The translations under genes and the position numbers were made by a program. Of a stretch of DNA of 4,797 nucleotides, positions 3,258 through 4,797 are shown in pieces. Source of the DNA: a virus (lineage: Duplodnaviria > Heunggongvirae > Uroviricota > Caudoviricetes). The notes below the pieces were generated by a model that was not told where the DNA came from, did no database searches, and was given only the letters and a program-made list of their open reading frames with translations. The stretch is taken from IMG/VR virus record IMGVR_UViG_2124908012_000287, one strand, 5' to 3'. Within the stretch, counting starts at the first letter, position 1. Every line of letters begins with the position of its first letter.

Positions 3258-3796
3258 AAGAAAGCAATCAGCGATGGTGCTCTGACGGGTTCGAGTTCTG
3301 CTGTGATAACGGAGAGAGACTGCGTGTCACGTTCGCGCTGGACTGCTGTGATCGTGAGGCACTGCACTGGGCGGTCACTACCGGCGGCTTCAACAGTGAA
3401 ACAGTACAGGACGTCATGCTGGGAGCGGTGGAACGCCGCTTCGGCAACGATCTTCCGTCGTCTCCAGTGGAGTGGCTGACGGATAATGGTTCATGCTACC
3501 GGGCTAATGAAACACGCCAGTTCGCCCGGATGTTGGGACTTGAACCGAAGAACACGGCGGTGCGGAGTCCGGAGAGTAACGGAATAGCAGAGAGCTTCGT
3601 GAAAACGATAAAGCGTGACTACATCAGTATCATGCCCAAACCAGACGGGTTAACGGCAGCAAAGAACCTTGCAGAGGCGTTCGAGCATTATAACGAATGG
3701 CATCCGCATAGTGCGCTGGGTTATCGCTCGCCACGGGAATATCTGCGGCAGCGGGCTTGTAATGGGTTAAGTGATAACAGATGTCTGGAAATATAG
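3104..3796 (+). pseudogene. insD: IS2 transposase InsD, 5'-truncated (C-terminal ~230 of 301 aa retained, including most of the catalytic region)
   Basis: Recognised from the InsD protein sequence. There is no start codon with an RBS for the native N-terminus, and the upstream insC gene and the programmed frameshift region are absent. Confidence 0.85.
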
Positions 3797-3807
3797 GGGC
3801 AAATCCA
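3104..3807 (+). mobile_element. IS2 fragment: 3' ~700 bp only (about positions 628..1331 of the 1331-bp element), with an intact right inverted repeat; the left repeat, insC and the insD N-terminus are missing
   Basis: The 218-aa ORF-track ORF 3140..3796 matches the C-terminal part of the IS2 transposase InsD ([24 protein letters not shown]...[31 protein letters not shown]). In-frame homology extends upstream to about 3104 ([12 protein letters not shown]). The 3' terminal sequence ...GTCTGGAAATATAGGGGCAAATCCA is the IS2 right end. Confidence 0.85.
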
Positions 3808-4797
3808 GGGTTCTTGTCCCATGATGTTCAAAACTGTCAATATCCTGCATTGTTAGCGTAGCGCCACTGCCAATTTCCAGCAAAGCTTTATCCTGTACCC
3901 GAATAACCCCGGCAAACCCCAGAGGGAATTCTCCGCTGATTGTCGTATCTCCATTCAGATATACCGACGACTCACCACTAACGACAATAACGCTGGTATA
4001 ACTATATCCTGTGCGCAAGGAAGTAACCTGCGACCCATCTGCAAGCGCGTTTTTCTCTCCAATCAGTTCAAGTCCACCATTCATATTAACGGTATTGCCA
4101 TCGCCAATCACAACCAGACCTGACGTTTTCTCTGCGCTGCCATCAAATAAATTACTCTGACGAGAAGTAACCTCACTGTCTGATACAACAGTTAACTTTC
4201 CATCCAGCGTCACGTTATTATCACTGCCGTAAACGTTGATACCCACGGATGGATCGAAGAAATATTCCGCCGCATTGTCTGCGGTTTTATCCTTATCAAC
4301 CAGAACGTTACCAGTGATATTCACTGTATTCGCATCGCCAGAAACGTTTATGCCCGTCGCTTTCTGCCCGACCACTTTTAGATCTTTTGCCGCCAGCGTC
4401 ACGCTGTTATTGTTGCCATTAAGATCTACCCCGGTCGAGAAATCGCCAACCTGCATACTGCCTGCCAGCGAAACCTTCCCACTGTTGGTTGTGATGCTGA
4501 ACCCTGTCGCTTCATTGCTAACGTTAACATCACCCGTATTGGATACTGTTGCCCCCTCACCGTTGATGAGCACGCCAATCGATCCAGTATCGGAAACAAC
4601 AATATCTCCTTTGTTGTTAACCGTGCCGTTGTCACCAATGTTCTCAACACCATGCGCACCGCCTGTAACAGTCAGGCTACCATCCAGATTTACAATGCCG
4701 ATATTGCCCGCGATTTTGGTACCCGTGGAATCTTTTCCATCAACAGTGGTTTTTCCACTGTTATTCGCGGTGGCGTCGTTACCGTTGATCTGAGTGC
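3767..4797 (-). pseudogene. Repeat-rich putative adhesin or autotransporter-passenger-like protein (beta-helix-type G/N/T/V/S repeats); the 5' end lies beyond the window and the 3' end is truncated by the IS2 right end
   Basis: The minus-strand frame is open from the window edge (4797) to a stop at 3767..3769, with no stop upstream of the GTG that the ORF track used as a start. Translation shows recurring xGxNTVxxNGxL-type units (NVSGDANTVNITGNVLV, VYGSDNNVTLDGKLTV, VIGDGNTVNMNGGLEL). The last 13 codons and the stop ([13 protein letters not shown]) are encoded by IS2 DNA between 3770 and 3807, so the native C-terminus, including any beta-barrel, is missing. Confidence 0.6.

Follow-up and report, generated by a model that had tools for sequence, protein, structure and literature searches.

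How does a fragment of a broken adhesin gene come to adjoin the Qin prophage, when its place on the Escherichia coli K-12 map lies 183 kb away? This question is raised by a stretch of 4,797 nucleotides (nt), filed in IMG/VR as the virus record IMGVR_UViG_2124908012_000287 (Caudoviricetes) and called the window below, and more specifically by the minus-strand gene that occupies its right end (3767-4797). In a preliminary description, made from the sequence alone, this gene had been taken for an adhesin-like repeat gene that is truncated at the right end of a copy of the insertion sequence (IS) IS2. Our analysis leaves hardly any doubt that the distal end of ydbA fragment 1, the N-terminal 839-codon piece of the K-12 ydbA pseudogene, occupies 3767-4797. 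The gene is already catalogued, as the long-annotated, IS-broken K-12 ydbA autotransporter adhesin pseudogene (b4492, formerly b1401/b1405), and the only unusual point is its neighbourhood: a ydbA fragment, instead of intQ, lies beside Qin, owing either to an IS2-by-IS2 inversion or to a mis-join across the repeat. For a real junction, generated in a strain of the K-12 lineage by inversion of roughly 183 kb through recombination of IS2D with IS2E, we see an about even chance (a probability of roughly 0.5). The features that meet at this junction are the following.

2337 to 3101, plus strand: ydfE' of Qin (MG1655 annotation), forming the unique sequence to the left of the hybrid junction
3102 to 3807, plus strand: 5'-truncated IS2 remnant of 706 bp, sharing its entire sequence with Qin IS2E and with the right-hand 706 bp of IS2D
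3140 to 3796, plus strand: insD' open reading frame (ORF), matching Pfam rve and rve_3 (DDE transposase)
3767 to 3807, minus strand: right terminal 41 bp of IS2, giving the last 13 codons and the TAA of the truncated ydbA frame
3808 to 3812, no strand assigned: GGGTT, one copy of the 5-bp target-site duplication of IS2D in ydbA (AACCC, which borders both ends of IS2D in MG1655)
3808 to 4797, minus strand: 3' part of ydbA fragment 1 (codons 511-839 of 2,020), 100% identical to MG1655 1466920-1467909 (reverse complement)

The minus-strand gene and the ydbA family

On the minus strand, 342 codons are open from 4795 to 3770, followed by a TAA stop (the reverse complement of 3767-3769), and the frame continues past the right edge of the window. 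As the preliminary description had recognized, the native sequence ends at 3808, with the boundary between IS2 and host DNA lying between 3807 and 3808, and the final 13 residues and the stop are supplied by the right end of IS2, the first of these 13 codons straddling 3807/3808. Residues 1-329 of the frame are all identical to residues 511-839 of the reconstructed K-12 YdbA. At the nucleotide level, 3102-4797 matches MG1655 1466920-1468615 (reverse complement) with 100% identity over 1,696 bp, of which ydbA contributes 990 bp and IS2 706 bp; in MG1655 this stretch takes in the terminal part of 'gene fragment 1 of ydbA' and the right-hand 706 bp of an IS2D that is complete there. Insertion point, 5-bp target duplication and 13-codon IS2 tail are the same in the window and in MG1655 ydbA::IS2D, and the minus-strand gene is annotated in RefSeq. 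The arrangement had been called merely reminiscent of the IS2-disrupted ydbA; the likeness is there, but it was understated, as the sequence is ydbA fragment 1 itself. Among 5,426 complete E. coli genomes, the 990-bp ydbA segment is present with at least 99% identity in about 1,200, and 381 of these also have the K-12 junction between IS2 and ydbA fragment 1.

The segment 3808-4797 encodes passenger repeat region only, the 5' end of the gene lying beyond the window, and the fragment protein consists of G/N/T/V/D-rich repeats with a short-strand periodicity. The passenger repeats of ydbA are not modelled in Pfam, where the 342-amino acid (aa) fragment has no match. To the NCBIfam model auto_BigA (NF033178) the fragment aligns with E=5.5e-22 (76.7 bits, model positions 463-722), and the earlier reading of the minus-strand repeat frame as a piece of an autotransporter-adhesin passenger has thus held up, more precisely as residues 511-839 of a protein of the BigA/YdbA family. 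In K-12, ydbA is interrupted twice, by IS2D and by an IS30C that follows after another 50 bp; joining the three ydbA fragments, with IS2D, IS30C and the duplications removed, restores a single open frame of 2,020 codons. In this reconstructed YdbA, and outside the window, Pfam finds the beta-barrel domain BigA_N (PF25784; residues 140-220, E=1.5e-32) and BigA_beta (PF25783; residues 1589-1672, E=3.7e-26), as well as the Autotransporter beta-barrel PF03797 when the C-terminal 373 residues are scanned alone (E=1.4e-19), a domain that is not listed in the Pfam scan of all 2,020 residues. The PF03797 barrel belongs to ydbA fragment 3, in agreement with the earlier statement that the C-terminal translocator is missing here, and this hallmark of type Va autotransporters is found only in the gene as a whole and not in the window fragment. 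Against auto_BigA, for which the cut-off is set at 3,400 bits, the reconstructed protein reaches 1,126 bits, with an alignment that extends to the C-terminal end of the model; because this is far under the cut-off, YdbA is by its score a homolog of BigA and not BigA itself. By its domain content, ydbA is thus predicted to encode a type Va autotransporter adhesin of the BigA/YdbA family.

A single-sequence AlphaFold model of the fragment (predicted template modelling score 0.74; predicted local distance difference test values of 80-92 over the first ~170 residues) has the form of a regular stack of short beta strands, which makes a beta-helix fold of this part of the passenger likely. When the model was compared with the PDB by Foldseek, no structure reached E<=0.001, and those ranked highest, without significance, were the TibA passenger, beta-helix lyases and tailspikes. 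With the C-terminal 373 residues of YdbA as query, phmmer found no match among PDB sequences.

The comparison with ydbA and with an intact ortholog, which the preliminary description had proposed as a check, could be made on both sides, i.e. with the 2,020-codon K-12 frame and with an uninterrupted 2,412-aa ortholog that strain 124611 carries at the same pdxI/paaY locus. The difference in length between these two alleles probably reflects variation in repeat number. Near-identical tandem repeats of ~330 bp are present in MG1655 ydbA fragment 1 just past the right end of the window (positions 4104-4900 of the extracted MG1655 locus), with exact repeats of up to 123 bp. Strains 164, 35 and 6409, which appear to be unrelated to one another and are not K-12, have a 1,952-aa ydbA coding sequence at the pdxI/paaY locus with an IS3 near its 5' end. 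This IS3 (10471-11779, 8471-9779 and 7470-8778 of the respective extracted loci) leaves a 49-aa N-terminal stub in addition to the 1,952-aa annotated coding sequence, and inactivation of ydbA has therefore occurred in other lineages independently of the K-12 IS2 and IS30 insertions.

What could become of the product of fragment 1? Fragment 1 should have kept its signal peptide, which like the rest of the first 510 codons is encoded outside the window, along with roughly 40% of the passenger, and should be devoid of the remaining passenger, the BigA_beta beta-sandwich and the PF03797 barrel. By means of its signal peptide the product could reach the periplasm; insertion into the outer membrane would not be expected, and surface display should be impossible because these distal parts of the protein are absent. 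In either genomic context, ydbA fragment 1 would be a dead pseudogene remnant, and beside Qin it would simply face the insD' and ydfE' remnants convergently, in a juxtaposition that encodes nothing.

The junction of Qin, IS2 and ydbA

To the left of ydbA, the window is Qin sequence. Positions 1-3807 correspond, in the same orientation and with 100% identity, to MG1655 1,647,742-1,651,548, and what this Qin match and the ydbA match (3102-4797) have in common is precisely the 706 bp of IS2. The window is thus a Qin-IS2-ydbA hybrid, in which DNA from 1.65 Mb of the MG1655 chromosome (Qin) is joined to DNA from 1.47 Mb (ydbA), and collinearity with the K-12 reference is broken. The window leaves MG1655 Qin between 3807 and 3808, where the reference reads CAGGTGAACTACGC... 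and the window reads GGGTTCTTGTCC... Annotation transferred to the window by map position would therefore be wrong.

This is what happened with intQ. In any ORF of 3767-4797 there is no PF00589 domain, as expected from the earlier observation that tyrosine-recombinase motifs are missing; the further claim, that the K-12 label intQ is unsupported, has to be given up. It arose because collinearity with the reference had been assumed from the left-hand genes, an assumption which fails at the end of IS2: the reference DNA to the right of IS2E is a different, plus-strand sequence, and the MG1655 intQ frame matches Pfam Phage_integrase (PF00589) with E=3.1e-18, in addition to arm-binding and SAM-like N-terminal integrase domains. 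By these matches, the reference label is sound and denotes a defective tyrosine-recombinase gene of Qin. Hence, although intQ does sit immediately to the right of IS2E in MG1655, the idea that the window is simply the reference K-12 locus, with an adhesin fragment mislabelled as intQ, is refuted by the divergence at 3807/3808, by the mapping of the right-hand 990 bp to ydbA and by the integrase match itself, and we regard its probability as negligible. Just as little can be said for the notion that the minus-strand frame merely reflects a gene on the other strand, as an antisense artefact. A plus-strand ORF of 185 codons (4236-4793) does overlap the region, but neither this ORF nor the plus-strand ORF 4011-4160 nor a second minus-strand ORF has a Pfam match even at E<=1, whereas the minus-strand frame belongs to an 839-codon frame in K-12 and to frames of 2,020 to 2,412 codons with BigA_N, BigA_beta and Autotransporter domains, so that this notion is likewise refuted. 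An integrase domain and an antisense origin were the two findings that the preliminary description had named as speaking against its view of the gene, and neither was obtained.

In MG1655, IS2E lies on the plus strand at 1,650,843-1,651,548 (insD7 plus) and IS2D on the minus strand at 1,467,910-1,469,240 (insD2 minus). The two copies are inverted repeats with perfect identity over 706 bp, and both unique flanks of the hybrid adjoin these inverted IS2 copies in the parental arrangement, which is the geometry of an IS-mediated inversion. The reference flank of IS2E is CAGGT, unlike the AACCC/GGGTT of IS2D, and it is the latter duplication that is retained at 3808-3812. It follows that the right flank goes back to the original IS2D insertion rather than to a fresh transposition event. 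What is observed directly at the join is the identity of the sequences, their orientation and the conserved target duplication. A new IS2 transposition into a ydbA paralog within Qin was considered and rejected; the old IS2D duplication and the 100% identity speak against it, and the element has no left end.

The element at the join shows both the right-end sequence of IS2 and an ORF for its DDE transposase; it has no left end, no insC and no full-length insD. As it comprises only 706 of 1,331 bp and the left end is absent, the remnant is unable to transpose. MG1655 annotates the IS2E remnant as the insD7 pseudogene. The 41-bp right end taken alone matches IS2 copies in thousands of genomes. 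The remnant cuts ydfE between 3101 and 3102, and the ydfE ORF continues for 153 nt into IS2, ending at 3257, which gives a product of 306 aa for which Pfam YdfE_N and YdfE_C are recorded. In the intact lambdoid phages Tritos, HannyBb and PhiR42_1, a ydfE homolog is annotated as exonuclease VIII, and the similarity of intact phages to the window ends at about 3103, i.e. at the IS2 boundary. To judge by its truncation, IS2E suggests an older IS2-associated deletion in Qin, which would have removed the rest of ydfE and sequence beyond it. The remainder of the Qin part shows the following features.

1 to 2336, plus strand: Qin immunity and division-inhibition region, 100% identical to MG1655, with the gene order dicC'-dicA-ydfA-ydfB-ydfC-dicF-dicB-ydfD
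1 to 109, minus strand: dicC', by identity with MG1655
193 to 600: dicA, by identity with MG1655
within 1 to 2336: ydfA, ydfB and ydfC, by identity with MG1655
1642 to 1693, plus strand: DicF small RNA (Rfam RF00039, 76.7 bits, whole model length), between ydfC and dicB as in the reference
1868 to 2056: dicB, by identity with MG1655
2053 to 2244: ydfD, by identity with MG1655

Recombination in the cell or in the assembly

If the join was made in a cell rather than by an assembler, and as a simple inversion, as we infer, its origin can be formulated in a few steps. In a strain of the K-12 lineage, RecA-type homologous recombination would occur between the inverted copies IS2D and IS2E, and a single reciprocal exchange would flip the intervening ~183 kb (MG1655 roughly 1.468-1.651 Mb). 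One of the resulting junctions would be ydfE', followed by the 706 bp of IS2 and by ydbA fragment 1 in reversed orientation, i.e. the window; the other would be expected to consist of IS30C, the 50-bp ydbA piece, a full-length IS2 and intQ. The inverted segment would include dif, found as an exact 28-mer at 1,590,750 of MG1655 between the two IS2 copies, as well as a Ter-consensus site at 1,609,162, which lies within the IS2D-IS2E interval between yneE and uxaB, a position that we take to be that of TerC. When dif is inverted along with the sequence on either side of it, the polarity of the FtsK-orienting polar sequences (KOPS) still converges on dif, and because FtsK/KOPS polarity would be preserved in this manner, an inversion of ~183 kb would be tolerable. 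Since the window begins and ends in single-copy sequence, it was probably taken from a longer sequence spanning the repeat.

Several lines of evidence weigh against such an inversion. The join sits inside a perfect multi-copy repeat, i.e. exactly where mis-assemblies arise, and the window carries one junction only. The Qin-IS2-ydbA junction is missing from every one of the 5,426 complete E. coli genomes, whereas ydfE::IS2E occurs in 361 of them, the reference order ydfE-IS2E-intQ in 350 and IS2::ydbA fragment 1 in 381. The junction is also absent from plasmid and phage records. With exact patterns of at most 600 bases, which are shorter than the 706-bp repeat, scans of GTDB, JGI and IMG/VR gave a similar picture: no instance of the junction in JGI metagenome contigs, no IMG/VR contig with the join of IS2 and ydbA and, among the GTDB species representatives, two K-12-like chromosomes, CP178308.1 (ECDA1023) and CP178306.1 (ECGI0523), which match the window only up to 3807. 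(It may be mentioned in passing that a collection of one genome per species nonetheless includes two K-12-like E. coli chromosomes.) All 25 of the 25 contigs examined for the YdfE' protein have intQ downstream; the 218-aa insD' ORF is uninformative as a contig probe, as it is called at many IS2 copies. Finally, we found no paper that describes an inversion involving IS2, ydbA, Qin and intQ. A list of IS2 insertions in W3110 (PMC2072959) and the designed deletions in DGF-298 (PMC10652928) are unrelated, as are the mentions in papers on ER2796, JM83 and NCM3722.

These data also define the strongest competitor of the inversion, to which we give a probability that falls only somewhat short of even. 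In this alternative, the join would be an in-silico chimera: having entered the 706-bp IS2 segment from ydfE, the assembler or scaffolder would have left it on the wrong flank, and the real genome would have the reference arrangement. The join lies wholly within 706 bp that are identical at both loci and match IS2 copies in thousands of E. coli genomes, and the junction is found neither in the complete genomes, which include about 360-380 of the K-12 lineage, nor in the other collections scanned. Moreover, two 'viral' contigs in IMG/VR are pieces of K-12-type Qin with ydfE::IS2E that end 30-150 nt into the IS2 remnant, where short-read contigs of this locus usually stop, and crossing the remnant therefore requires a choice between paths through the repeat. 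(In these two contigs the ydfE::IS2E junction is located at 32-76 and at 104-148, respectively, a typical short-read break at a repeat.) The right end of the window, only 21 nt past the last exact internal repeat of ydbA, even faintly resembles a contig edge. What speaks against a chimera is that the window ends in single-copy sequence and not at repeat boundaries, as contigs from de Bruijn graphs do, that the ORF truncated by its edge is not on record among the encoding contigs, i.e. as a contig-edge gene, and that a legitimate recombination product would have precisely this geometry, although any mis-join through the repeat would look alike. A third possibility, i.e. that the junction is real but belongs to a larger or multi-step rearrangement among IS2 copies, such as a duplication with one recombinant join or an inversion with a subsequent deletion, or to a minority variant that entered the consensus, seems improbable to us. 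It would be compatible with the single junction visible in the window, and 11 of the 361 ydfE::IS2E genomes, for instance those of the NCM3722 lineage with an extra IS2, have no contiguous intQ, so that other rearrangements or insertions at the IS2E remnant do occur. Yet there is no positive evidence for such complexity, and the observed structure is most simply reached by one reciprocal exchange between the inverted repeats. Extra pieces of IS2 or IS3 at the IS2E remnant are seen in the NCM3722 lineage as well as in JW-5, Trp01, BH212 and YJX.

If the inversion by recombination of IS2D with IS2E is real and fixed in the strain, dif would have moved by about 60 kb and the polarity of the TerC-like Ter site would be reversed, in an arrangement that has no counterpart among the 5,426 complete E. 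coli genomes and that could serve as a test case for tolerated reorganization of the terminus region. This would be of modest interest for chromosome architecture, strain provenance and quality control. If, on the other hand, the join is a chimera, the window flags an assembly error at the IS2 remnant. The gene itself adds nothing new, and the practical value of the case is as a warning against annotation by map position.

Relation to known systems

The closest known counterpart of the window is MG1655 ydbA::IS2D, from which it differs in its surroundings: in MG1655, ydbA fragment 1 is followed by the complete 1,331-bp IS2D, then by 50 bp of ydbA and then by IS30C, whereas the IS2 of the window is reduced to its right 706 bp, which continue into ydfE of Qin. 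With BigA, a large autotransporter adhesin of Salmonella, the reconstructed YdbA shares both BigA Pfam domains; the window fragment has neither of them, nor the PF03797 barrel. MG1655 intQ adjoins the same IS2 remnant in the reference, but is an unrelated plus-strand sequence that is absent from the window.

Inversions mediated by IS elements have been described in E. coli, e.g. an IS10-mediated inversion of 11 kb in DH10B (PMC4444293) and IS-bounded inversions in the long-term evolution experiment (PMC4173774). Hybrid junctions of just the form seen in the window are generated when inverted IS copies recombine. An inversion between IS2D and IS2E was found neither in the literature we searched nor among the 5,426 complete genomes. 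Compared with the known IS-mediated inversions, it would stand apart in two respects, as one of the two recombining partners would be a dead 706-bp remnant and the inverted segment would include dif together with the TerC-like site.

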